This document shows, one piece after another, positions 8,522-48,932 of a stretch of 64,000 bases of DNA; within the stretch, counting starts at the first letter, position 1, and every line of letters starts with the position of its first letter. Where the stretch lies: positions 137,529 through 201,528 of the forward strand of contig DASWWW010000002.1 of assembly GCA_036400935.1 (NCBI GenBank), written 5' to 3'. This DNA is from Minisyncoccota bacterium (GTDB taxonomy: Bacteria; Patescibacteriota; Minisyncoccia; Phycocordibacterales; UBA6065). The notes under the pieces are model-generated. The model saw only the letters and a program-made list of their open reading frames with translations, was not told the origin of the DNA and ran no database searches. Made by a program: the position numbers and the translations under genes.

Positions 8522-9220
8522 CTACGCCATCCAGCCCTTTGCCTCGAGCGCCTTCAGCGCGGCATTCTGCTCGGCCTCCTGCTTTGACTTGCCTTCGCCC
8601 GTGGCGATCTGATCCTTGCCGATAAGGACGCCGACGGTAAACGACTTGTCATGGTCGGGACCGGCCTCCCTGACGAGCTTGTACGAAGGCGTGATGCCCG
8701 TCTTCTCCTGGGCTTTCTCCTGAAAGAGGCTCTTGGCGTCGACGAGGTTGCCTTTGGCGATCAGCTTGTCTGCGAATACGAGGATATGCTGCTCGATGAA
8801 TGCCTTTGCCTTGTCATAGCCCTGATCGAGGTACAGCGCGCCCGTCACCGCTTCGAAGGTGTTAGCGAGGATGTATTGGCGGGCGCGCCCCGTATCCTTT
8901 GCCTCGCCCTTCGAAAGCAGAAGGTAATCGTTCATAGTGAGGTTTGACGCGACTTCGGCGAGGGTGATCGAGTTTACGAGCGCCGATCGGTACGTAGTGA
9001 GCTCTCCCTCGGGCTTTGTCGGGTACTTTGCGTATAGAAAATTGGTAACGACCAGCTCCAAAACGGCGTCGCCGAGGAACTCGAGGCGCTCGTTGTGCTC
9101 GAACCGGGTGTTCTTGTTCTCGTTTATATACGAACGGTGCGTGAAGGCCTGGCGCAGGAGGTTCTTATCCTTGAACGATATGCCGGCCTTTTCTTCGAAT
9201 TTTGCGAAATTTATATCCAT
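8522..9220 (-). CDS. rnc: ribonuclease III
   Basis: ERLEFLGDAVLELVV RNase III signature, with a dsRBD-like C-terminus. Confidence 0.9.
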   Translation of the reverse strand: MDINFAKFEEKAGISFKDKNLLRQAFTHRSYINENKNTRFEHNERLEFLGDAVLELVVTNFLYAKYPTKPEGELTTYRSALVNSITLAEVASNLTMNDYLLLSKGEAKDTGRARQYILANTFEAVTGALYLDQGYDKAKAFIEQHILVFADKLIAKGNLVDAKSLFQEKAQEKTGITPSYKLVREAGPDHDKSFTVGVLIGKDQIATGEGKSKQEAEQNAALKALEAKGWMA

Positions 9221-9241: not shown

Positions 9242-10141
9242 TTATTTCTTTGGTATGAGTGAGATTGCCTTTGCGATGATCGGGAGCATGTCCTCGTAGA
9301 AGTTGAGGCTCGCTATCTCGTCTGCCCGGAACCACTCGGCCTTGTCGAGGCCACCGGTCTCCTTGAGGGTGAGGGGCTTGTATGCCGCTTCGGCGAGGAA
9401 GTATGTCACCTGCTTGCGGAGCTTGCCCTTCTCTGGGTGCGTCGCCACGTACTCGTTCGAATCGACGGACTCGAGGAGCTTGATATCAATGCCGATCTCC
9501 TCCTTCACCTTGCGCATGGTGCCTTCCTCCACTGTTTCTGTCTCCAAAAGGCTTCCCTTGGAAAGAGTCCAGCGGCCGAAGACGTCGTGCACGAGGGCAA
9601 GATAGATGCGGCCGTCGTGTCGGGCGAACACGACCGCTCCGCCGAGCTTCACGATAGGCATCTTGTCGAAAGGAATGTTGAACTTGTCGTCCTTCTTCTT
9701 TGACACGGCGTCCTTGCCCGGCTCGCCCATCTCCTTGTATACGGATCCGAGCACGCCGTTCACGAACTTGCCCGAATTCTCGCCGCCAAAGCTCTTTGCG
9801 AGCTCGATAGCCTCGTTGATAGCTACCTTTGCAGGCACCTCGCCGCGATCGGCGAACAAAAGCTCGTAGAGGCCCATGCGCAAGACGTTCCTATCGATGA
9901 TGGAGATCTTGTTCAAAGGCCAGTCAGGGGCCGCCTTTGTGATGATCATGTCGATCTCGGGCTGCTTCTTGAGCACCCCTTCGCCAAGCTCCTGCATAAA
10001 GGCAAGATCGCTGTTTCCCGGCGCAAATTCTGCGGCGTCGCGGCCGATAGCATCAGAGAGGATGCTCGAATTTTGGTCGCGGAAATCCCACTCAAAGAGT
10101 GATTGGAGAACAACTGATCTTGCAAGGTGCCTGTTTGCCAT
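9242..10141 (-). CDS. nusB: NusB antitermination-factor domain fused to a C-terminal Nudix hydrolase domain
   Basis: N-terminal half: DRNVLRMGLYELLF...VPAKVAINEAIELAKSFGGENSGKFVNGVLGSV, which is NusB. C-terminal half: GGAVVF...GRWTLSKGSLLETETVEEGTMRKVKEEIGI, which matches the Nudix box GX5EX7REUXEEXGU. Confidence 0.8.
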   Translation of the reverse strand: MANRHLARSVVLQSLFEWDFRDQNSSILSDAIGRDAAEFAPGNSDLAFMQELGEGVLKKQPEIDMIITKAAPDWPLNKISIIDRNVLRMGLYELLFADRGEVPAKVAINEAIELAKSFGGENSGKFVNGVLGSVYKEMGEPGKDAVSKKKDDKFNIPFDKMPIVKLGGAVVFARHDGRIYLALVHDVFGRWTLSKGSLLETETVEEGTMRKVKEEIGIDIKLLESVDSNEYVATHPEKGKLRKQVTYFLAEAAYKPLTLKETGGLDKAEWFRADEIASLNFYEDMLPIIAKAISLIPKK

Positions 10142-10477: not shown

Positions 10478-11071
10478 CTAGAGCAGGCCTTTCATGAAGC
10501 TCTTGCGGTGTATCGGCGTCATCCCGTTCGAGCTAATGGCCGCCAGGTGAAGCGCCGTGCCGTAGCCCTTATGCCTTTCAAAGCCATAGGCTGGATATTT
10601 CTTGGCCATCTTGTCCATATGGCCGTCGCGAGTGACCTTGGCGATGACAGAGGCCATGCTTATGAGGGGAATCTTCTCGTCCCCCTTTATGAAAGTCTCT
10701 TGGTGAACGTATGCCACTGGCGCCTTGAGCGAGCCGTCGAGAAGAACGCTCGTTCCGGACGGGTCGAGACCGAGGGTCGCGAGGCATTCGGCGAGCGCCG
10801 ACCTGATGGCGCCGGTGATTCCGTCCCTGTCGATCTCCCGGGCCGTTCGCGACACGACAGACCATCTCATAGCGCCAGCATCGCGCGCCGCCTGCGCCCT
10901 GGCGAACCACTCTTCCCTCTTTTTTGCCGAGAGTTTTTTCGAATCCCTGATTCCGGCAAACCATCCCATATTGAAATCCGCCGTCACGGAGCACGCGCAG
11001 AGCGTCACCGGGCCAGCCAGAGGGCCACGGCCGACCTCGTCGATGCCGACGATGTTTGAGATTTTGGGCAT
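10478..11071 (-). CDS. rnhB: ribonuclease HII
   Basis: IVGIDEVGRGPLAGPV signature. The ORF is open up to 11188, but that N-terminal extension would translate the palindrome (FVVFFYY), so I prefer the MPKIS start at 11071. Confidence 0.85.
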   Translation of the reverse strand: MPKISNIVGIDEVGRGPLAGPVTLCACSVTADFNMGWFAGIRDSKKLSAKKREEWFARAQAARDAGAMRWSVVSRTAREIDRDGITGAIRSALAECLATLGLDPSGTSVLLDGSLKAPVAYVHQETFIKGDEKIPLISMASVIAKVTRDGHMDKMAKKYPAYGFERHKGYGTALHLAAISSNGMTPIHRKSFMKGLL

Positions 11072-11091
11072 GCTCACAGTATATACTTTTT

Positions 11092-11141
11092 CCGCCATGG
11101 GCGATTTGTAGTAAAAAAATACTACAAATCGCCCATGGCGG
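11092..11141. repeat. perfect 22-bp inverted repeat CCGCCATGGGCGATTTGTAGTA-A6-TACTACAAATCGCCCATGGCGG in the divergent rnhB/dnaE region
   Basis: Read directly from the sequence. It shares the core TTTGTAGTA-W-TACTACAAA with the repeat at 25365-25391. Confidence 0.7.
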
Positions 11142-11224
11142 AAAATACGCATCCCGCCCTCGGCACTACACGGACACGTCAAAGTCAACGCGCATTTAAG
11201 ACCGATTTGTTCTAAAATCTACGC

Positions 11225-14200
11225 ATGGCCCGCTTTATCCACCTCCACACGCACAGCCACTACTCGCTTTTGGCAGCGCTTCCGAAGATCGAAGACCTCG
11301 TAAAGGCGGCAAAGGCCGACGGCGCGCCAGCCCTCGCTCTCACCGACAACGGAAACCTCTACGGGGCGATCGAGTTCTACAAGGAGTGCAAGAAGGCCGG
11401 CATAAAGCCGATCATCGGCATGGACGCATATCTGGCGGCGCGATCGCGCACCGACAAGCAGTCCGGAATCGACTCACGGCGCACCCGCATGGTCTTTCTC
11501 GTCAAAACCGAGGCTGGCTACAAGAACATCATCCAGCTCATCACCAAATCCCACCTCGAGGGCTTCTACTACAAGCCTCGCGTGGACAAGGAGCTCATCA
11601 ATCTCCACAAGGAGGGCCTCATCGCCATCGATTCGGCATTTTCCGGCAACCTGACGACGGCGCTCCAAGGAAACGACATCGCAAAGGCCTGCGAGATCGC
11701 AAACTACTGGAAAGGCGTATTCGGCGCGGACTACTACCTCGAGATCACCCATCATCCCGACATCGACGGCCACGAGACGATCATGGAGCGCACCAAGGAG
11801 GTGGCAAAAAAGACCGGCATCCCTCTGGTAGCCGGCGGAAACGTCTATTACATAAGGCCCGAGGACAAGGCTGCGCAGCAGACCCTCATGCTCGTGAACT
11901 CGTCGGGCGACGACCGCATCAACGACGACGACGTGGCGGATTTCTCATTCATCTCAGACAGCACGGCCCAGAATTATTTCCGCGACATCCCGGAAGCGAT
12001 CGCCAATACGGAAAAGATCGTCGCCGACATCACTTTCGACATGAAGCTCGGAGTCTGGGCTTTCCCCGACTTCCCTTTGCCGCCCGGCGTCACGCCGGCA
12101 GACGCATTGCGCAAGATCGTATTCGAAGGATTCGCAAAGCGAAACGTCGAGCAGACGCCGACGGCGGTAGAGCGCGTCGAGTACGAGCTCAAGGTCATCA
12201 AGGATAAGGGTTACGAAGCCTACTTCCTCATCGTGGCCGACCTTCTCGCATACGCACGAACCCACGGAATCCTTTCGAACATCCGAGGATCCGTTTCCGG
12301 ATCGATGGTTACGTACCTGTCGGGCATCACGAACCTCAACCCGATGGAGTACGAGATCCCATTCGAGCGATTCCTCAATCCGGACCGACCTTCGGCGCCC
12401 GATATCGACATGGACTACGCCGACGACCGCCGCGACGAGATGATGGAGTACGCAAAGCAGAAGTACGGCTCTGACCGCGTGGCTCAGATCGGTACCTTCG
12501 GAACCATGGCCGCCCGCGGATCGGTCCGAGACGTCACGCGCGCCCTCGGATTCCCGGTAGAGATGGGCAACAGGCTCTCGACCCTGATCCCTATGGGCTC
12601 GCAGGGATTCCCTATGACTATCGACAAGGCGCTCGAGGATGTCGAGGAGCTTCGCACCCTCTACAAGAACGAGGCCGACGTGAAGCGCATCATCGACATG
12701 GCCAAGAAGATCGAAGGCTGTGCCCGCCAAATGGGAGTGCACGCAGCCGGAATCGTCATCTCGCCTACCTCGCTCACAAATTTCACCCCGCTCCAGCTCG
12801 ACCCGAAGGGCGAGGGCAAGATCATCACCCAGTACGACATGTACTCGATCGACGAGAACGGCGCGGGCCTCCTCAAGTTCGACTTCCTTGGGTTGAAAAA
12901 CCTCTCTATCATCGCCGACGCCCTCAAATTCATAAAGGAGAACCACGGCGTGACAATCGACCTCGACACCATGTCGGTCGACGACAAGAAGACATTCGAA
13001 ATGCTCGCCCGCGGCGAGACGTCCGACCTCTTCCAGCTCAACGGAGACGGCATGACCAAATATTTGAAGGACCTCCGCCCGACATCGATCCACGACATCA
13101 ACGCTATGGTGGCCCTCTACCGACCGGGCCCAATCCAGTTCATCCCTCAGTACATCGAGCGAAAGCACAATCCGAAGCTCATTACCTACCTCGACCCTGC
13201 CCTCGAGCCGATTTTGAAAAAGACATACGGAATTCTCGTCTATCAGGACGACCTCCTGATGATGGCGAACAAGCTCGCGGGATATACCTGGGGCGAAGTG
13301 GACAAATTCCGAAAGGCCGTCGGAAAGAAGATTCCGGAAGAGATGGCCGCGCAGAAAGAAAAGTTCATCGCAGGCTGCGTAAAGTACCAGAAATGGCCTG
13401 AAAAGAAAGCCAAGGAGCTTTGGACATGGATCGAGCCCTTCGCGGCATACGGATTCAACAAGGCACACTCTGTGTCGTACGGACGCGTCGCGTACCAGAC
13501 CGCATACTTGAAAGCAAACTATCCTGGCGAATACATGACCGCAATCCTCATCCACGAAGCCGGAGACGTCGAGAAGGTCGCAGAGTCGATCAAGGAATGC
13601 AAGCGCATGAACATCGCCGTGCTTCCGCCGTCAGTCGGACAAAGCCAGGAAAAATTCGCCCTCATCAAGGGCGCGGGCAAGGACGGCGCGGACGTCATCC
13701 GCTTCGGCCTGAACTCGATCAAGAACTTCGGAGAGAACGCCGCAAAAGCCATCATCGAGGAGCGCAAGCGGGGCGGCCCGTTCAAGTCCCTCTCGGACTT
13801 CCTTTCGCGCGTCAAAGGCAAAGACATGAACAAGAAGTCGCTCGAATCCCTCATCAAGGCTGGGGGCATGGACGAGTTCGACGACCGCATCAAAATGTAC
13901 GGCAACCTCGACCGCCTGCTCGACTACAGCAAGGAAAAGGCCAAGGCCGGAAACAATCAGGACTCCCTATTCCTAGGCTTTGCGAACCACGACGAGGTGC
14001 GCCTCGATCCTGTCCCGATGACGGATGCTTCGGCCCGCGAGAAATTGAATTGGGAAAAGGAGCTCCTCGGCCTCTACATTTCCGGACATCCCTTGGACCG
14101 ATACAAGGCCGTGCTCGCCAAGAGCCCTATAAACATAGCAAGCATCAAAGCGAAAGCCCTGAAGGAGCTCGCCAACGTGAATGAGCAGATCGCCAAAGCC

Positions 14201-14517: not shown

Positions 14518-15510
14518 TTAATGGGCGCCCCTCTCCGATTCCAATTGCCTGTAGACCGCCATCTTCTCCTTATCGCCCTGGCCGTTGAGGTCGCATATGC
14601 GGAAGCCTACCAGCAGAGCGCACTGAGTGTTCAAGAGCTTCCTGCCGGCCTCGGTCTTTTGGGCGTCGAACATCGCCGCCAGGCCCTCCCGCTCTTCGAA
14701 CGTTATGGAGGCGACGACTTTTCTCATGCTCTTCTCCCGGACATTGCGGCGAGCGATCTTTTCGATAAAGGCGGAATACTTGCCATCGACGAGCCGGTCC
14801 ATGATAGCGCCCGCCATGCTGTGCATCTCAAGCTCCTCGAGGACCCTGTCGTCGCTGCTGCGATCTATCTCCTGACCCCTGCGCTTCCCGGTCTCCTTGT
14901 TCCAGATGAAGGCATGGCCGAGCTCGTGATAAATGACGCCCGTCATGATCTTGTCGGGAATCTCTACCGCGGGGACGGCTATGGTGTTGGCGCCAGTATT
15001 CCATTTGGGCGTATACCAGTCGTTGTCCTTGAAGCAGTTCTCCTCTGACACGAAGCAGAATCCGAGCTCCTCGCCCATAGGCGGCTTGAGGTCGGTCTGA
15101 TCGGGCCTGCCGAGAAACGTGATAGGCGCCTGGCCGAAGCCCTTCGGCGTCACGTAGCCGACGCGCAAGGAATGGAACCGGGCGGCGATCCGCTCCGTAT
15201 CCGGAGAAAAATGCCGCGCGGAATTCACGAGTGCCTGGATCTTATTCTTCTTCGATTCAAGAAGGTAGTACCATTCGATGGCCGTATCGGGATCTTTCCT
15301 GAGCCACCAGACATCCGTATGGCGGCTCGTCACGATGTTGGTGACGATAAAGCTCCTGAACGACGCTAGCACTTCCTCCTTCTCGCGCTTCTTGCGATCG
15401 ATGATCCTGAAGCAGGATACGATCGCCAGAACCAGCAGGACGGCGATGCCCGCATAGGCCCATCCCCTGTTGCTTTTCCCATTAGGTATCTTGACTGTCG
15501 GTTTTTTCAC
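14518..15510 (-). CDS. membrane-anchored putative zinc metallopeptidase (HExxH)
   Basis: N-terminal TM helix AYAGIAVLLVLAIVSCF. VIYHELGHAFIW HExxH motif with a downstream EELEMH glutamate. Confidence 0.5.
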   Translation of the reverse strand: MKKPTVKIPNGKSNRGWAYAGIAVLLVLAIVSCFRIIDRKKREKEEVLASFRSFIVTNIVTSRHTDVWWLRKDPDTAIEWYYLLESKKNKIQALVNSARHFSPDTERIAARFHSLRVGYVTPKGFGQAPITFLGRPDQTDLKPPMGEELGFCFVSEENCFKDNDWYTPKWNTGANTIAVPAVEIPDKIMTGVIYHELGHAFIWNKETGKRRGQEIDRSSDDRVLEELEMHSMAGAIMDRLVDGKYSAFIEKIARRNVREKSMRKVVASITFEEREGLAAMFDAQKTEAGRKLLNTQCALLVGFRICDLNGQGDKEKMAVYRQLESERGAH

Positions 15511-15671
15511 GGTTCGAAACTCCCAGAATATAGGTTTGGTTGAAGAAATTGGTTTTGAAAGAACGGCCTATAAAATACCATTAAAATTGAAATTTGACAA
15601 TATTTCATGCTTCGAAAGAAGCGCGTGGTTTTGACTTTCATACCTAATAAAAGTAATCTCTACTCCGGAAG

Positions 15672-15880
15672 ACGGCGTGATCGGTAGCGCGCCGGCCTGT
15701 CAGCCATGGCCACAGGGTGGTTCGCGGATGTCTTTGCTCGGTTCCAAACGCCCGAGAAAATCCGTAAGCCCACTATCGAGACAGGGACGTAGCATCTGAG
15801 CAAGCGCCTGACATCGTGATGCAGCTGCGTCCTACCATACAAAGGGCGGGGATTCATAATCCTCGCCCTTTCTGATTTTC
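15672..15880 (+). ncRNA. candidate structured small RNA (unclassified)
   Basis: A GC-rich, hairpin-rich island inside a 410-bp AT-rich intergenic region. A TTGACT-17-TAATCT promoter-like element precedes it and it ends in a terminator, AAGGGCGGGG-TTCATAAT-CCTCGCCCTT plus a T-run, at about 15841-15880. There is no credible ORF. Confidence 0.25.
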
Positions 15881-15923
15881 ATTGACAAAAACCCATTTTA
15901 TTATACTTTGACAGCAAACGGTT

Positions 15924-16694
15924 GTGTTGAGAGCAGAAGAAATGTCGCCAAACGGCTATCTTTCTTCTGCTTTCAAATACAATCCAATGAACATCACACT
16001 GACACCTGAACAGAATGCAAAGGTAGGGCCAGAAATTGTCGCCCTGCTCGCGAAAAGCGATATCGATATCCCTGTGGGCCACACTGCCGAAGTGAGCGTG
16101 CGAATCATCAGCGCTTTCTTCCCTTCCGTCGAGATCGTCCATATAAATCCCGAGCTCGACAAAAAACTGGCTGCGCCGGCGCGAAGCCTGACTCTCAAGA
16201 AGGGCTCGCAAGGGCGCTTTGTAAACAGCATCGTTAATAGAGGCAACCTCCACACGATCGGCGAACTGGTACGCAGCACGGACGAGCAGCTGCTAGCGCT
16301 GCACAACGTGTCAAAAGGCACGGTCGCGGGCGTCAAGGACGCTCTGTCGGAAATCGGACTCTCAACTGGCATGAAGATGCCGGTCGGTCCGCAAGAGAAG
16401 GAGGCTAGGCGGCAACGCAGGCTTTGCATCAAAGTCCATAGCTATAGCTGGAGCCAAAGCACCATTCAAGGAATCCCCGATGGAATAATGCTCTTCGTCT
16501 CAGATTCAGGATTCTACTCGGCGCACCAATTTCTAAACGGACGTTCCAAGGATACTCTTGTAAGGCTTCTCGGCCAATGCACCCTTCTACGAGAAAACGA
16601 TGAAAGCTCCGTGAAGTGGCTGCTCATGCATCCAACGGGAGAATGCCGATACCAGGTAATCTTCGACGCTATATACAGCCACTGCAACGGCTAG
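15924..16694 (+). CDS. hypothetical protein with an RNA polymerase alpha-subunit C-terminal-domain-like (helix-hairpin-helix) module
   Basis: FVNSIVNRGNLHTIGELVRSTDEQLLALHNVSKGTVAGVKDALSEIGLSTGM closely resembles RpoA alpha-CTD ([42 protein letters not shown]). TTGACA-15-TATACT lies upstream. Confidence 0.55.
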   Translation: MLRAEEMSPNGYLSSAFKYNPMNITLTPEQNAKVGPEIVALLAKSDIDIPVGHTAEVSVRIISAFFPSVEIVHINPELDKKLAAPARSLTLKKGSQGRFVNSIVNRGNLHTIGELVRSTDEQLLALHNVSKGTVAGVKDALSEIGLSTGMKMPVGPQEKEARRQRRLCIKVHSYSWSQSTIQGIPDGIMLFVSDSGFYSAHQFLNGRSKDTLVRLLGQCTLLRENDESSVKWLLMHPTGECRYQVIFDAIYSHCNG

Positions 16695-16742
16695 GCCCGC
16701 GACTTGTATCGCGGGCTTTTTTATTGGTTTTTCACAACCCCA

Positions 16743-17003
16743 TTACGAGTTTTCAGCTATCGCAATCATCGCAAATGCGACATACACAACGACTCCTAGG
16801 ATTGAAAGCACAAAAATGCGCCTGCTGCCCTTGGCAAGCGAAAAAAGCCAGGTAGTGACACCGATCCAAACCAAGGTTCCTAGCCAACCGAACATTATGA
16901 ACATATTGTAATTAGTCGGCATCGACAGCGTCGCAACAAGTCCCGTGCACACATAGTACGCAGACCAGCCAACGACAGACAAAAGGGCTCTTAGGGCTTT
17001 CAT
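16743..17003 (-). CDS. small membrane protein (86 aa)
   Basis: Three predicted hydrophobic helices. Confidence 0.4.
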   Translation of the reverse strand: MKALRALLSVVGWSAYYVCTGLVATLSMPTNYNMFIMFGWLGTLVWIGVTTWLFSLAKGSRRIFVLSILGVVVYVAFAMIAIAENS

Positions 17004-17089: not shown

Positions 17090-17300
17090 ACCAAATCGGC
17101 TTGCCGCTATACCATTAGCCCTATCAGAGATCGCCTTGGCTACCAACCAGGGGCCGTACAGACGGCAGGAAACTCCAATCTGACCAAAGAGACAAAAGCC
17201 AGGTGGAACCGCGACGCAAATCGCCCTAGCAAATACATGACTTCGGTCGTGTCGTTGCTAGGGCGCTTTTCTTTATCAGGCAACTTTATCCAATAACCAT
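17090..17300 (+). promoter_or_regulatory. candidate T-box leader (tRNA-sensing riboswitch) upstream of thrS
   Basis: GGTGGAACCGCG matches the T-box core GGUGGNACCGCG and lies about 25 nt upstream of the terminator hairpin CCCTAGCAA...TTGCTAGGG plus U-run, immediately before the thrS ATG. An AGAGA motif and ACC triplets are present in the 5' part. Confidence 0.4.
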
Positions 17301-17310
17301 TACAAACAAC

Positions 17311-19059
17311 ATGTCTTCTATAGAACATATCCGACACTCATTCGCCCACCTGCTCGCAGCAGCCATCGGCGACCTGTACCCAGGCGTAAAGAACACCATC
17401 GGCCCGGCGGTCGACAACGGCTTCTACTACGACTTCGACTTCTCTGCCGTCGAGGGCGGCAAGATCCCGTCGGACAAGGACTTCAACGCCATCCAGAACA
17501 AGATGCGCGGCATCCTCAAGGCCTGGAAGGGCTTCGAGGGCAAGGAGGTCTCAGAAGCCGAGGCAAAGGAGCTTTTCAAGGATAATCCGTACAAGCTCGA
17601 GCTCATCGCAGAGATCGTAAACAAGGGAGAGAAGATCACCCTCTACACCTCGGGCAACTTTACCGACCTCTGCCGAGGAGGCCATGCCGAGATCAAGGAG
17701 ATGAAGGGCGACGCCTTCAGGCTCGAGCGATTGGCCGGCGCGTACTGGCGTGGCAATGAGAAGAACGCCATGCTCACCCGCATATACGGCCTGGCATTCG
17801 AGTCCAAGGAAGCGCTCGAGAAGTACGAGAAGGACCAGGAGGAAGCAAAGAAGCGCGACCACCGCGCCATCGGCGAGAAGCTCGATCTCTTCTGCTTTGA
17901 CGAGTCTATTGGCAAGGGCCTCCCTATCTGGCTGCCAAAAGGAAACATCATCAAGGAGACCCTCGAAAAGTGGGCCAAGGAGACCGAGGAGGCATGGGGC
18001 TACCAGCGCGTAACGACGCCAGTAATCACAAAGGAGAATCTTTTCTACACCTCCGGCCACCTGCCTCTCTACAAGGACAGCATGTACGCCCCTATCGTCA
18101 TCGAGGACGAAAACTTCTACATCAAGCCGATGAACTGCCCATTCCACCACAAGGTGTTCTCGGCTCGCCCTCGCAGCTATCGCGAGCTTCCATTGCGCGT
18201 TGCTGAATACGGCTGGTGCCATAGGTACGAGGACTCAGGCAGCCTCTTTGGCCTCATGCGCGTGCGCGGCATGCAGATGAACGATGCCCACATATACGTG
18301 CCTCTCGAGCAGGCCGTTGAGGAATTCGTGCAGGTCATCAAGCTCCATGAGTACTACTACAAGATCCTCGGCATTAAGAACTACCAGATGGAGCTTGCGC
18401 TGCGCGACCCGAAGAAGATGGACAAGTACCACGGCAACGAGGAAGATTGGAAACTTGCCGAGAAAATGACTATCGAGGCTATGGAGAAATCCGGCGTGCC
18501 ATTCAAGGTTGTTCACGAAGGCGCCGCATTCTATGGGCCAAAAATGGACTTCCAGATCTTCTCATCCATCGGCCGAGCATTCACCGCGTCGACAAACCAG
18601 CTCGACCTCTTTATGGGCAAGAAATTCGATCTCGAATACACGGCCAAGGATGGCACCAAGAAGACCCCTGCAGTCATCCATCGCGCCCCTCTCGGCACGC
18701 ACGAGCGATTCATCGGCTTCCTTATCGAGCATTTCGGAGGCAATTTCCCTCTCTGGCTCTCTCCTGTGCAGGTGAAGGTCATTCCTGTGCGCGAGAATCA
18801 TGACGCGGCGGCCACGGCTGCAGCGGATCTCCTCAAGAAAGCCGGACTCCGCGTCGACCTCGACACCTCCGATGCCGGCTTCGGCAAGAAGGTCCGCGAG
18901 GCAAAAGACTACAAGGTCCCTTACACAATCATCATCGGCGACAAGGACATCGAGGCAGGCGTAGTCACCCTCGAGTCCCGTGACAAGGGCAAGGTCGGCG
19001 CCATGAAGATCGAAGAGGTAGTGGCGATGCTCTCGAAAGAGTCAGAAGCAAAGGCGTAG
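17311..19059 (+). CDS. thrS: threonyl-tRNA synthetase (editing + catalytic + anticodon-binding; no N-terminal TGS domain)
   Basis: HxxxH (IRHSFAHLL) and CxxxH (CRGGHAEI) editing-site zinc motifs, class II core motifs, 582 aa. Confidence 0.9.
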   Translation: MSSIEHIRHSFAHLLAAAIGDLYPGVKNTIGPAVDNGFYYDFDFSAVEGGKIPSDKDFNAIQNKMRGILKAWKGFEGKEVSEAEAKELFKDNPYKLELIAEIVNKGEKITLYTSGNFTDLCRGGHAEIKEMKGDAFRLERLAGAYWRGNEKNAMLTRIYGLAFESKEALEKYEKDQEEAKKRDHRAIGEKLDLFCFDESIGKGLPIWLPKGNIIKETLEKWAKETEEAWGYQRVTTPVITKENLFYTSGHLPLYKDSMYAPIVIEDENFYIKPMNCPFHHKVFSARPRSYRELPLRVAEYGWCHRYEDSGSLFGLMRVRGMQMNDAHIYVPLEQAVEEFVQVIKLHEYYYKILGIKNYQMELALRDPKKMDKYHGNEEDWKLAEKMTIEAMEKSGVPFKVVHEGAAFYGPKMDFQIFSSIGRAFTASTNQLDLFMGKKFDLEYTAKDGTKKTPAVIHRAPLGTHERFIGFLIEHFGGNFPLWLSPVQVKVIPVRENHDAAATAAADLLKKAGLRVDLDTSDAGFGKKVREAKDYKVPYTIIIGDKDIEAGVVTLESRDKGKVGAMKIEEVVAMLSKESEAKA

Positions 19060-25225: not shown

Positions 25226-25364
25226 GGCTTAGACTATAGCACTTTTGGCAGAAATTTCCACGCGCGGGCGCGATTGCGACGGCGCGGGCGAAGTGACTTT
25301 TTTAATATCTTAGGAAAACCTCAAATCCCTCAGCCCTTTCTGACAACGTTTTTCTCTCTATCTG

Positions 25365-25391
25365 ATTTTGTAGTATTTTTTACTACAAAAT
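25365..25391. repeat. perfect inverted repeat ATTTTGTAGTA-T5-TACTACAAAAT upstream of pheST
   Basis: Read directly from the sequence. It has the same core as the repeat at 11092-11141. Confidence 0.7.
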
Positions 25392-25517
25392 GCCTACGAC
25401 GGAGAAAGTACTACCGCTACCTTTAGCCACGTCGCTTATCGCCTCATCCGCCAAGCAAAAACCGCCTTTTGGACGGTTTTTACGCTAGTCAATTCGCTGA
25501 TTGCTGGCCTACTTTTT

Positions 25518-32388: not shown

Positions 32389-32524
32389 CCGATTAATTTA
32401 GCTTGTTATATAGGTTTATAAGTATATCCAGAATGGCTTAAAAGTAAAGGGCGCGAGGCTCTAATTGACAATAACCGAATTAATCGCAATATAAGTACCA
32501 AATGCTCCTTGGCAGCGATTTGGC

Positions 32525-32560
32525 CATGGCTATAAGGGATATGAGGCCCTTATAGCCATG
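32525..32560. promoter_or_regulatory. 14-bp perfect inverted repeat CATGGCTATAAGGG-N8-CCCTTATAGCCATG overlapping the start codon of the downstream membrane-protein gene
   Basis: Read directly from the sequence. The right arm ends with the ORF's ATG at 32558-32560. Confidence 0.5.
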
Positions 32561-33139
32561 ACTAAACTAATACTGAAAGTGCTCCTCGGCTGGTTCTTCG
32601 TAGCCAGCTTCCTCGGCGGGTTCGGCTACTTTATCCAGAAACCCGCGCGCGACATCGGCAAGATCACCACCGTCAGCGAGGTTATCTGGCTTCCAAAAAG
32701 CTACGTCCATGCGAACAAGCTTCCCGACGGCTCCTACGGCGCGATCGACTCGGTATCCTTCAATAGCATGACGATGTCAGTCGCCTTCGACGAGGCGTTC
32801 AAAGTGCGGGCCTCGCTTTCGGAACAAACGGTCGTGACGGTCACCTCGGAAGGAGTCCATTACGTGGCGACCTACGGTGGCATCGAGTACCGCGCGTTCT
32901 GGAGTCCCCTGCCAGGATCACCCGCCGCGCACAAGCGCCTTGGGGCAAGAATCCTCACCGACCATAACGTCATCTGGAAAGTGCAGGATTGTCACTCGCT
33001 AGCGCTGACAATCATATTCATCTGCATTATGGCGGCACTGATCGTTGTTCCGTTCAAAGGCATCAAAGCGGGTATGCGTAGCCTTTGGAAAGATACGCAA
33101 AAGCTCTTTCCCAAAGCTCCTGGGCTCGCCGCCTGCTAG
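32558..33139 (+). CDS. hypothetical membrane protein (193 aa) with N- and C-terminal TM helices
   Basis: Intact ORF with its own terminator at 33164-33190, in a lower-GC stretch. Confidence 0.45.
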   Translation: MTKLILKVLLGWFFVASFLGGFGYFIQKPARDIGKITTVSEVIWLPKSYVHANKLPDGSYGAIDSVSFNSMTMSVAFDEAFKVRASLSEQTVVTVTSEGVHYVATYGGIEYRAFWSPLPGSPAAHKRLGARILTDHNVIWKVQDCHSLALTIIFICIMAALIVVPFKGIKAGMRSLWKDTQKLFPKAPGLAAC

Positions 33140-33204: not shown

Positions 33205-33236
33205 AAAACAAAAGCCGTGTAGTAAAACTACACGGC
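33205..33236 (-). terminator. intrinsic terminator after the 205-aa ORF
   Basis: GCCGTGTAGT-AAAA-CTACACGGC perfect 10-bp stem, with a U-run on the minus strand. Confidence 0.6.
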
Positions 33237-33262: not shown

Positions 33263-33880
33263 CTATTTTTTCTTCCTCTTGGCCTTTTCAGCCTCCAAGA
33301 AGTCCTTCGCTGCTTTAAAGAGCTGCTCCCTACTGTCCTTATCCCACGGGAAATGGTCGCAGAGTATGTGATGAGCCATCTCACCCACAAACTGGATCCG
33401 CTCCCCAAGGGCCTCTATCTCTATCTTCTGATAATGCAGGGAGCACTTTAGCACCTCTTCGAGCTCGAGCGCCTCGGCGGACAGCTGGCCATGACCCTTG
33501 TCGAAAACCAGCATTGCCCACTGACTTTTCTCTCGCTCGAACCGCTTCTCGTCCCGGACTTTCTTGCGGGCAAGCCCATCGAGATGGCCCCCGACATACT
33601 TGACCGCCTCTTCCACCGAGTGCGTTGGATCAAGTCCGATAAGGGCACAGGTCCTCTGATGGTTGGCATACAACGTGAACCACGCCCGGTCCATATCGTT
33701 CTCGCGTTTCTCGACCTTGCGATAGTCCCAGAAGCGAAGCCGCGACACGCGGCCATTCTGACCGATATTCCGCTTTCTCATGGACACCTGCACCTCTTCT
33801 GACAAATGACCGATCATGGAGGCGAGAATTCGCGGATCGATATAGCGAACCGTCTGTTGTTTTTTAGCTACAGCATTCAT
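33263..33880 (-). CDS. hypothetical protein (205 aa) with a Lys-rich C-terminus
   Basis: Intact ORF convergent with the previous gene, and it has its own terminator. Confidence 0.45.
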   Translation of the reverse strand: MNAVAKKQQTVRYIDPRILASMIGHLSEEVQVSMRKRNIGQNGRVSRLRFWDYRKVEKRENDMDRAWFTLYANHQRTCALIGLDPTHSVEEAVKYVGGHLDGLARKKVRDEKRFEREKSQWAMLVFDKGHGQLSAEALELEEVLKCSLHYQKIEIEALGERIQFVGEMAHHILCDHFPWDKDSREQLFKAAKDFLEAEKAKRKKK

Positions 33881-36769: not shown

Positions 36770-38038
36770 CTAAAGAACGTCGCCGATAAACGGAACCGAG
36801 AGCCTTCGGCGCACGCCGGGCGGCAGGAATGAGAGGCTCTTCTCGCCCCGCTCCTCCTTTTGGATGGCGCGCAGGCTCGATGCGACGTGGATCAGGTCGC
36901 GCCCGTATTTTTTATTGAGTTGATCGACGGCCTTGAATGCCTCGCCTCGGCTGCGGTCTGCGCCGGCCGCGCCGAACAAGTCCTCCTGGCGGCCAGACGC
37001 GGGCACAAGATTGCACAAGGTCACTCCCGAAGCACGATACACGTGGCCGGGATCGAACAGCTTCCCGAATAGCTTCTTGGCCTCGGCAATGATGATGAAT
37101 GGATCGTCGGTGGCGAGCTGGAGTCTAACCGAGTCGCGCTTGTACCAAAACTCCTTGGTCTTTATGAAGACGGAGAATTCGCGAGCGCACAGGCCCATGC
37201 CGCGCGCCCTGTGGCAGGCGCCCTCTATGTTTTTTGAAAGCTCCGAAAAGATGTAGCCCTCGTCGCTCGAATGCGGATGGAATGAGCGGGTCTTCATGAT
37301 CGATTTCTGCGCCTGGCCCGCATGCTCGCCGACGCGGTTGATCGAAGTGCCGTTGAGCTCGTACCACATCTCGATCTGAAGCTTTGAGAAATGCTCGCGG
37401 ACCCAGTCTGCCGATTTTCGCGCAAAATCGAGGGCCGTGTTGATGCCCAGCTTGCGAAACGAGATAGTCGTAGCCGAGCCGATGCCCCAGACGCTGCCGA
37501 TCGGCGTCCTGTCGAGCAGCTTTTCGACATCGGCCATGGGTAGGATGGTCAGGCCGTTAGGCTTTTGGCTTTTCGATGCCGTCTTTGCCAGGACGCGTGT
37601 CGATGCGAGGCCGAGCGATACGGAAATGCCAAGCTCTCGAGCGATGTCTTTCTTTATCTTTTCCAAAATGGGGCGAGCGGACTCGAGCGAGCCGTCGGCG
37701 GCAGGCGCGAATTCGGGAATATCGGAGAAATCGGCAAAGCACTCGTCTATGGAGTACTCCTCAACCACGTCCGTGTAGCGCCGGACTATATCGAACATGC
37801 GGCGCGAGAAAACGGCATAGGCGTCGTAGTCGGATTCGACGATGCGCACCTGCGGAAACTCCTTTCTGATGCGAAAGACCGGCATGGCGCGGGTAATGCC
37901 GAGCGACTTCGCTTCCTTGGACATGGCCGTGGCGATGCCGCGCTCGAATCCCGTCACGACGGGCTTGCCGCGCAAGGACGGATCCTTGGCAGCCTCGACC
38001 GACGCAAAGAAAGAATCGCCATCGAGGTGCATGATCAT
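36770..38038 (-). CDS. Y-family (UmuC-like) translesion DNA polymerase
   Basis: MIMHLDGDSFFASVE...GKPVVT...YSIDECFADF palm motifs. It resembles UmuC (GKPVVVL, YSIDEAFCDL) more than DinB. There is a 4-bp overlap (ATGA) with the upstream S24 gene. Confidence 0.8.
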   Translation of the reverse strand: MIMHLDGDSFFASVEAAKDPSLRGKPVVTGFERGIATAMSKEAKSLGITRAMPVFRIRKEFPQVRIVESDYDAYAVFSRRMFDIVRRYTDVVEEYSIDECFADFSDIPEFAPAADGSLESARPILEKIKKDIARELGISVSLGLASTRVLAKTASKSQKPNGLTILPMADVEKLLDRTPIGSVWGIGSATTISFRKLGINTALDFARKSADWVREHFSKLQIEMWYELNGTSINRVGEHAGQAQKSIMKTRSFHPHSSDEGYIFSELSKNIEGACHRARGMGLCAREFSVFIKTKEFWYKRDSVRLQLATDDPFIIIAEAKKLFGKLFDPGHVYRASGVTLCNLVPASGRQEDLFGAAGADRSRGEAFKAVDQLNKKYGRDLIHVASSLRAIQKEERGEKSLSFLPPGVRRRLSVPFIGDVL

Positions 38039-38367
38039 ACGAGCTTGCGGATTACGGCCGTGACGACGGCCTCTATGGAAAGCTCCGAGCCGACTGCAAG
38101 ATCCGCGCGAACAGGACCCGCGCCACCAATTCGCGAATCGAACCGGGCCATCCTAAAAGCGCCGTCATGCACGGCAATCACGATATTTCCATCGTGCGGC
38201 GAACGGGATCGGTCGACGATCAGCAAATCGCCGCGGAAAATTCCCTCACCGCGCATCGAATCGCCGGACGCGCGCATCATGAAAGTCGCCTCCTTATTTT
38301 CTATGAGGTATTCGTCGAGAGACATCGTCTCGAGCGCGTCTTCTTCTGCCTGCGTGCGGAATCCCAT
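38035..38367 (-). CDS. UmuD'-like S24 peptidase-domain protein lacking the N-terminal cleavage arm and the catalytic Lys
   Basis: ASGDSMRGEGIFRGDLLIVDRS...DGNIVIAVHDGAFRMARF aligns to UmuD [21 protein letters not shown]...GDIVIAAVDGEFTVKKL. Only about 35 residues lie before the Ser. The start is set at ATG 38367; the ORF track extends to GTG at 38373. Confidence 0.7.
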   Translation of the reverse strand: MGFRTQAEEDALETMSLDEYLIENKEATFMMRASGDSMRGEGIFRGDLLIVDRSRSPHDGNIVIAVHDGAFRMARFDSRIGGAGPVRADLAVGSELSIEAVVTAVIRKLV

Positions 38368-38373
38368 GCACAC

Positions 38374-38402
38374 AGTATAAGTGAACTACAGTTCACTTTC
38401 AA
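38374..38402 (-). promoter_or_regulatory. sigma70-type promoter TTGAAA-17-TATACT for the umuD-like/umuC-like operon; likely leaderless
   Basis: On the coding strand: TTGAAA GTGAACTGTAGTTCACT TATACT GTGC ATG. The ATG at 38367 is 7 nt after the -10 element. Confidence 0.55.
38380..38397. promoter_or_regulatory. Cheo-type SOS box (LexA operator) AGTGAAC-TACA-GTTCACT
   Basis: Perfect palindrome containing GAAC-N4-GTTC, which matches the B. subtilis-type consensus CGAACRNRYGTTCG. It occupies the promoter spacer. Confidence 0.65.
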
Positions 38403-48850: not shown

Positions 48851-48932
48851 TTAACGGGGATTGTGGGTTCAGCACCGGTTATAAGCTAACCCTGTCAGCA
48901 ATACAAATTGTAGTGCACGACTCGAATCAGGC

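Follow-up and report, generated by a model that had tools for sequence, protein, structure and literature searches.

Two related intergenic palindromes in a Minisyncoccota genome, for which a small repeat element specific to the species is a likelier reading than a conserved switch of housekeeping genes

In bacteria of the CPR, genomes are very small, genes are separated by short intergenic regions, and regulators and described repeats are few. Literature searches on Patescibacteria uncovered no account of palindromic repeats or regulatory motifs like those analyzed here. REP sequences carry a GTAG or GTGG head outside the 5' foot of an imperfect GC-rich stem, and work by Nunvar from 2010 and by Messing from 2012 is said to place a GTAG head in that position. 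Two palindromes in a stretch of 64,000 nucleotides from a Minisyncoccota bacterium (hereafter the window; contig DASWWW010000002.1 of assembly GCA_036400935.1, positions 137,529 to 201,528) resemble the REP/REPIN (RAYT) systems in that they are short, extragenic, and hairpin-forming, occur in more than one copy, and contain GTAG. As in REPINs, two inverted halves make up one long hairpin. In contrast to the REP head, however, GTAG/CTAC is paired in the stem near the loop, and the top of the stem is AT-rich. REPs also number in the tens to hundreds per genome, whereas two copies were found in about 80 kb of the source genome, including the 10 kb to the right (L128) and the 6 kb to the left (L155) of the window, neither of which contained a third copy. 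No RAYT gene was found in the window or its flanks, where searches with Pfam, NCBIfam, and PHROGs identified no Y1 (PF01797) transposase.

MITEs and other small palindromic repeats (Correia/NEMIS, RPE, and ERIC) are likewise non-coding inverted repeats in intergenic DNA, and, in a MITE-like manner, the palindrome is missing from the equivalent sites of relatives and can overlap promoters. It differs from these repeats in being much shorter (~60 bp) and in keeping its centre rather than its termini. Specifically, conservation between the two copies peaked at the centre and fell outward, which is not the pattern of a MITE terminal inverted repeat, and no target-site duplications or direct repeats were found at the ends of either copy. 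As no more than part of the defining features was found, the palindrome was filed under neither REP/RAYT nor MITE.

Operators of dimeric repressors or activators also consist of inverted half-sites in promoter-proximal DNA, comparable to the 9-bp half-sites of the palindrome. For a generic operator of this type, the half-site identity (18/18) fits, whereas the variable spacing, the variable distances to gene starts, and the absence from the relatives examined do not. The consensus of the BlaI/MecI/CopY operator is TACAnnTGTA, while the half-sites in the window are GCGATTTGTAG, not CTACATTTGTAG, and do not form this box; the assignment was rejected for lack of TACA and of any PF03965 protein in the window. 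The centre of copy 1, GATTTGTAGTA-AAAAAA-TACTACAAATC, has 11-bp inverted arms and a 6-bp spacer like the Xer/dif sites (11-6-11), which are 28 bp long and occur once per replicon, near the terminus, but the spacer of copy 2 is 5 bp, and the two sites lie 14 kb apart on either side of essential genes. Neither do the arms resemble the conserved XerD arm, and no integrase or recombinase gene for a Xer-type site was found in the window, where cumulative GC skew was monotonic and thus placed no terminus.

Some identities were considered and rejected. The Xanthomonadales LexA motif, TTAGTAGTAATACTACTAA, together with umuDC in the window, prompted a test for a LexA box. The palindrome contains no GAAC/GTTC, and the umuD-like operon has a GAAC-TGTA-GTTC of its own (38381-38396). 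The original prediction was right in recognising no known box of the LexA, CIRCE, or Rex type in the motif, with the LexA box of this host being GAAC-N4-GTTC upstream of umuDC. At gathering scores, Rfam identified tRNAs only, and a permissive search added sub-threshold noise from eukaryotic miRNA hairpins, so a known RNA family was rejected. DNA-uptake sequences (DUS/USS) occur at a density of about one per kb, and such an identity was rejected at the density of about one per 40 kb observed here.

Two palindromes with a common centre

The core pattern TTTGTAGTA-N3-9-TACTACAAA had two matches in the window and none in 100 dinucleotide-preserving shuffles, which confirmed both palindromes of the original prediction at their positions (Table 1). 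Degenerate copies with up to three mismatches were not found in the window. Searching for each half-site, a check that had been proposed, was unproductive, as the solitary matches at 11567, 18355, and 52494 are Tyr-Tyr-Lys codons inside genes. Two other sites had been named as weaker relatives sharing GTAGT. The one at 33214-33236 is a terminator as described, belonging to the - strand gene 33263-33880 and consisting of a stem followed by TTTTGTTTT on the - strand, but it is an ordinary intrinsic terminator rather than a relative of the palindrome. The one near 48908 is not a hairpin at all.

Table 1. Positions of the palindromes and of associated features in the window
Feature	Position	Strand	Description
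-10-like TATACT	11078..11083	-	6 nt ahead of the rnhB start codon; layout of the leaderless type
Four bases beyond the perfect arms, rnhB side (…AGTA on the - strand)	11084..11087	-	Still match the copy 2 right flank; set the orientation of the element
Copy 1 palindrome	11088..11145	.	TTTTCCGCCATGGGCGATTTGTAGTA arms and 6-nt A/T loop, between divergent rnhB (-) and dnaE (+)
Copy 1 core, TTTGTAGTA-AAAAAA-TACTACAAA	11105..11128	.	18/18 half-site bases same as copy 2
dnaE promoter block, GATTTGTTCTAAAATCTA	11204..11221	+	18/18 in relative L124 (9253-9270); outside the palindrome
pheS promoter, TGGAAA-16-TG-TATAGT	25233..25260	-	Its end is 8 nt from the ATG; copy 2 lies ~105-130 nt further upstream
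Lineage-specific non-coding DNA, ~195 nt	25261..25455	.	Between the tRNA-Thr terminator and the pheS promoter; absent from L130 and L131
Copy 2 left flank	25345..25365	-	Weaker remnant of the other arm, 11/21 at 1-nt offset, p = 0.012, marginal
Copy 2, ATTTTGTAGTA-TTTTT-TACTACAAAAT	25365..25391	.	11-nt arms, 5-nt loop
Copy 2 right flank, ATGCCTACGACGGAGAAAGTA	25390..25410	+	Homologous to the copy 1 outer arm and rnhB-side flank TCGCCCATGGCGGAAAAAGTA, 15/21 in register

Copy 1 had been described as a flawless inverted repeat of 22 bp. Its perfection was upheld, whereas its length was found to be greater, with arms of 26 nt each (11088-11113 and 11120-11145) around AAAAAA. It is by far the longest hairpin of the window (26 bp, compared with at most 15 bp for all others), with a dG of -32.1 kcal/mol when folded as DNA (z = -13), while the hairpin of copy 2 has a dG of -8 kcal/mol (z = -6.6). 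Both copies are AT-rich in a window of ~55% GC, and both are intergenic, where intergenic DNA accounts for 10.5% of the window. At both loci, independent Logan assemblies of SRR11449181, 183, 186, and 187 agreed with the window to 100%. Given this base-for-base identity in assemblies from at least four sequencing runs, neither copy is an assembly artefact, and no population variation was found at either locus among the sample assemblies.

Stable hairpins at both copies would fit an intrinsic, possibly bidirectional, terminator, which is scarcely credible on the remaining evidence. Copy 1 is located between divergent genes and has TTTT 5' of its stem and AAAA 3', the inverse of terminator polarity. 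On neither strand does a T-run follow either copy, and a terminator scan was empty at both. Moreover, a canonical terminator for tRNA-Thr is already present at 25456-25481, a hairpin with T-runs on both strands. The view of the original prediction that neither copy is a terminator therefore held.

The similarity between the copies was not restricted to the half-sites. In a local alignment of both intergenic regions, the match ran from the core out into the flank, with no homology found past ~60 nt. An independent repeat finder paired 11084-11118 with 25376-25410 (I2: 35 nt, 83%) and returned this pair as the sole non-coding dispersed repeat in the window. The match between the right flank of copy 2 and the outer arm of copy 1 had a p value of 2.8e-5, uncorrected for the registers and lengths tried. 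Altogether, the shared extent amounted to ~45-60 nt, and the in-register alignment of the copy 2 flanks with the outer arms of copy 1 shows that the two palindromes are copies of one ~60-bp element. Judged by this alignment, copy 1 is intact, and copy 2 is an older, decayed copy that has stayed perfect only in its central 24-27 bp. The proposal that the palindrome could be REP-like thus stood with respect to its extragenic location, its shared ~45-60 nt, and its placement in lineage-specific DNA (see below), but not with respect to the head and stem form of REP/RAYT.

With the better-matching flank taken to set the orientation, the loops are runs of T in both copies (T6 and T5), and the element reads …TTTT-CCGCCATGGGCGA-TTTGTAGTA-T5-6-TACTACAAA-TCGCCCATGGCGG-AAAAAGTA. 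Arm positions 10-11 differ between the copies (GA…TC versus AT…AT) and are complementary inside each of them. While the arms are ~62% identical, the centre is identical at 18 of 18 positions, and an intact 18-nt centre would be expected from neutral decay with a probability of ~2e-4, a value biased by the discovery of the pair through its centre. Subject to this ascertainment bias, the contrast between centre and arms points to a sequence-specific function, for which an operator would be just as good an explanation.

Promoters, gene order, and the syntenic loci of relatives

The gene calls around the palindromes were upheld, with rnhB (-) and dnaE (+) divergent, pheS and pheT on the - strand, and tRNA-Thr (-) upstream of pheS; RNase HII corresponds to HEY0908098.1 and PheS to HEY0908108.1. 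An alignment with nine relatives supported the ATG at 11071 (-) as the start of rnhB, as the original prediction had preferred, and dnaE starts with the ATG at 11225 (+). With the rnhB start so fixed, copy 1 is wholly non-coding, and it spans positions -17 to -74 relative to that start. The centre of the core is located at about -45 (about -45.5) from rnhB and at about -108 from dnaE, while the core of copy 2 is at about -152 from pheS. The copy 1 palindrome starts 4 nt upstream of the TATACT of rnhB and occupies the expected place of a -35 element, and a simple promoter scan identified no -35/-10 pair at rnhB.

The nearest genomes available are distant, with RNase HII 63-68% and PheS 80-84% identical, and they retain synteny on both sides of each locus. 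In three of them, one or two prepilin-type (N_methyl) genes lie between dnaE and rnhB (L124 9307-9843, L125 8655-10010, and L126 8949-10008, corresponding to 11072-11224 of the window), and in the two relatives with two pilin genes (L125 and L126), the second shares 8-10 nt with rnhB. The corresponding gap in the window is 153 bp long and contains the palindrome and no pilin gene. Similarly, tRNA-Thr and pheS are separated by 70 nt in L130 and 57 nt in L131, compared with 292 nt in the window, and in both relatives the tRNA-Thr terminator leads straight into the pheS promoter. About 195 nt of the 292 nt are extra, and copy 2 is located near the middle of this lineage-specific stretch, ~140 nt of which lie beyond the palindromic element.

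No copy of the palindrome was found in 109 kb of the relatives' syntenic loci, even at 5-6 mismatches. The lack of a copy carries weight, since non-coding DNA with a function is kept between genomes this far apart, as in the dnaE promoter block (18/18), which is identical between genomes with proteins ~65% identical, and in the leader of a ThrRS-like gene. In these comparisons, both copies occupy lineage-specific intergenic DNA. The original prediction had regarded absence from orthologous intergenic regions as evidence against its motif, and the palindrome was absent in every relative obtained. Its proposal of an operator for a regulator of replication and translation genes found no support as stated, given the spacing of 6 versus 5 nt, the variable positions, and the absence from relatives, and a conserved operator linking replication and aminoacyl-tRNA synthetase genes is not supported by the sequences compared.

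The location of copy 1, exactly where three relatives carry pilin genes, would suit a rearrangement scar, in which fold-back or template-switch repair at the pilin-gene deletion was seeded by a short pre-existing hairpin; the perfect arms likewise imply a recent origin or homogenisation. However, traces of both outer arms persist in copy 2 (15/21 and 11/21), which indicates that the long palindrome belongs to the element and not to one local event, and a scar is considered very improbable. A tRNA-targeted integration scar at copy 2 was rejected, as a search for a repeat of the tRNA-Thr 3' end identified none (score 16, compared with a null 95th percentile of 19).

Another reading places the hairpin in the 5' leader of the rnhB-rpmF-nusB-rnc operon, where it would be cut by the RNase III that the operon encodes, in an autoregulation modeled on the rnc leader of E. 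coli. Consistent with this analogy, rnc (8522-9220) is part of the same - strand gene string as rnhB, in which gaps are 21-68 nt, and a perfect stem of 26 bp is long enough for RNase III. It would nevertheless require a - strand promoter upstream of 11145, where none is detectable, while the TATACT located 6 nt before the ATG implies a leaderless mRNA from which the hairpin is excluded. In addition, the 11-bp AU stem of copy 2 is too short and not near rnc, and relatives with the same operon have no such hairpin. Autoregulation of this kind is decidedly improbable. The gene string itself is found in these Paceibacterota as rnhB-(rpmF)-nusB/nudix-rnc-smc, and it includes a NusB-NUDIX fusion of 299-300 amino acids (9242-10141, - strand, in the window) that is kept in the orthologues of L124-L127.

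The orthologous pheS promoters of L130 and L131 read TGcTAGTAT and TGcTACTAT, respectively, and the oriented core, TTTG-TAGTAT, is similar to the relatives' pheS promoter TTTTGcTAGTAT. The element might accordingly be a promoter module for short transcripts that enter the conserved flank, heading for rnhB at copy 1 and, at copy 2, for a 32-codon open reading frame ending at the bidirectional terminator. TAGTAT is indeed the -10 box of pheS in L130, and the strand that bears it points to the better-conserved flank in both copies. At copy 2, an ATG follows the predicted start by 8 nt, and the reading frame (25390-25488, + strand) begins at the edge of the copy and ends just past the hairpin 25456-25481. 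On the other hand, a -35 element is missing, the TG does not stand where an extended -10 would need it, the promoter scan was silent at both copies, and the small reading frames have no family match. As the palindromic symmetry and the 26-nt arms would also be left unexplained, a promoter module is improbable.

Distribution of the core and interpretation of the element

Outside the source genome, the bare core was searched against species-representative genomes, where the matches listed were single matches, mostly in AT-rich Bacteroidota and Cyanobacteria. A viral collection yielded 11 AT-rich matches, and the core with an A-run loop had 11 matches in JGI metagenomes. No family member with GC-rich arms was found among the viral, metagenome, and listed genome matches. 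In at least seven filamentous cyanobacterial genera, a near-identical palindrome, TTTGTAGTA-AGCGCT-TACTACAAA, was observed (L011, L036, L042, L065, L075, L101, L109, and L118), with the variants AACACT and AACGCT in L011 and L109. It looks like a conserved element of its own, unrelated to the window.

In another group of matches (L021, L074, L079, L102, L105, and L152), each half of the same core forms CTACATTTGTAG, so that a TTGACA-N16-TATAAT promoter encloses two TACAnnTGTA boxes. The core of L152 adjoins an open reading frame matching Penicillinase_R (BlaI/CopY-type) with an E value of 6.6e-4, a score below the Pfam cut-off due to truncation of the reading frame. This arrangement suggests that the core in these genomes belongs to an operator family of the cop-box type.

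The use of the same core as a promoter-embedded operator in unrelated bacteria favors what ranks as the main rival explanation, in which the palindromes would be operators of a lineage-specific dimeric regulator, with the 9-bp half-sites as the functional unit and the flanks reflecting duplication of the site. At rnhB, the regulator would act from about -45, either in the manner of a class II activator or by occluding the -35 position. An operator would account for half-sites identical at 18/18 while the flanks diverged, for two intergenic, AT-rich copies in a 55% GC genome, and for an rnhB promoter with a -10 but no recognisable -35 and with the core centred at about -45.5. Against this stand the spacing of 6 versus 5 nt and the placement of copy 2, which is ~150 nt from the pheS start and ~105-130 nt upstream of a complete pheS promoter, with no other annotated gene at hand. 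Furthermore, the palindrome is absent from relatives although true promoter DNA is kept, the 15-nt perfect extension of the copy 1 arms would be needless, and neither an HTH regulator nor another partner protein was found in the window. An operator of this type is thus possible but unlikely.

On the evidence of sequence comparison, a small repeat element specific to the species is a likelier explanation of the palindromes than a conserved switch of housekeeping genes, and the favored reading is a REP/MITE-like hairpin repeat, confined to this species, with a centre recognised by a protein (rough probability 0.45, and thus tentative). Several observations favor a repeat element. Homology extends past the half-sites on both flanks of copy 2, and both copies lie in DNA that has no counterpart in relatives, in 109 kb of which no copy was found while the dnaE block and the ThrRS leader were kept. 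The loops differ in length (6 and 5 nt), no constant distance to gene starts is maintained, and arm positions 10-11 differ yet remain complementary, with T-runs in both loops. Additionally, copy 1 forms the longest hairpin, and both copies are intergenic.

Other observations count against a repeat element. With two copies in about 80 kb, a dispersed family rests on n = 2, and the window contains no transposase, Y1/HUH, or recombinase gene, nor do the copies have target-site duplications. The centre is conserved, whereas MITE logic predicts conserved termini, and no member turned up in the other genomes searched, which leaves mobility a conjecture.

As a repeat, the element would have been propagated as a unit able to form a hairpin, through insertion or duplication, much as REPs or MITEs are, and its centre would be kept intact by a protein that recognises either duplex DNA or, in an extruded or single-stranded hairpin, the tip. 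Copy 1 probably affects the promoter of the rnhB-rpmF-nusB-rnc operon as a side effect rather than by a conserved regulatory design. The readings considered here are not mutually exclusive. Small repeats often carry protein-binding sites and can alter nearby promoters. In a broader and rather unlikely version, the palindrome would be the first example to come into view of a so far undescribed small hairpin repeat family in CPR/Patescibacteria, in which a dedicated protein (of the HUH type, or a lineage-specific regulator) reads the AT-rich centre TTTGTAGTA-W5-6-TACTACAAA and which reshapes promoters, here by replacing the pilin cassette and supplying the upstream region of rnhB-rpmF-nusB-rnc. 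If a multi-copy family and a recognising protein do exist, it would offer a tractable case of the gain of non-coding DNA and the rewiring of promoters in such genomes, as well as an entry point to a DNA-binding or DNA-processing protein not yet described. With two copies only, it would be a minor lineage-specific curiosity.

Other features of the window

The 8-mer CGATTTGT is common to the dnaE promoter block and the palindrome arm. A second hairpin of some length, the second-longest in a divergent intergenic region, was located at 32523-32562 between the L25 gene and a gene for a 193-amino-acid protein of no known function (GCCATGGCTATAAGGG-N8-CCCTTATAGCCATGAC, 15 bp with one mismatch), and it has GCCATGG in common with the arm of copy 1. 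Between dnaE and the ThrRS-like gene, three genes at 14518-17003 (330, 256, and 86 amino acids) are absent from the relatives' synteny. Of their products, the one of 256 amino acids weakly matched the C-terminal (HhH) domain of the RNA polymerase alpha subunit, and the 330- and 86-amino-acid proteins matched no family.

The ThrRS-like gene itself (17311-19059, 582 amino acids) is preceded by a strongly conserved leader (17195-17290, + strand), in which AGCCAGGTGGAACCGCGAC is followed by a long hairpin, CGCCCTAGCAA…TTGCTAGGGCG, and a U-run. Equivalent leaders are found in L124 (5545-5665), L125 (4367-4495), and L126 (4943-5060), and the hairpin is kept in four genomes with three compensatory pairs. 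Despite the likeness to a T-box motif with a terminator, Rfam gave no T-box match at this leader even at E <= 1, and it may be a divergent or reduced T-box leader of the CPR.

A -10-like hexamer without a Shine-Dalgarno sequence was observed 6-7 nt before the ATG of rnhB (11071), dnaE (11225), pheS (25225), and a umuD-like gene (38367), a layout suggesting that leaderless mRNAs are widespread in the source organism. The umuD-like gene encodes an S24 peptidase that has no HTH domain (38035-38367) and forms a - strand operon with a Y-family polymerase (36770-38038). Its promoter (38374-38402, - strand) reads TTGAAA-[GTGAAC-TGTA-GTTCAC]-T-TATACT-gtgtgc-ATG, where a LexA (Cheo) box of the Gram-positive type fills the spacer between the -35 and -10 elements, again in a leaderless-type layout.
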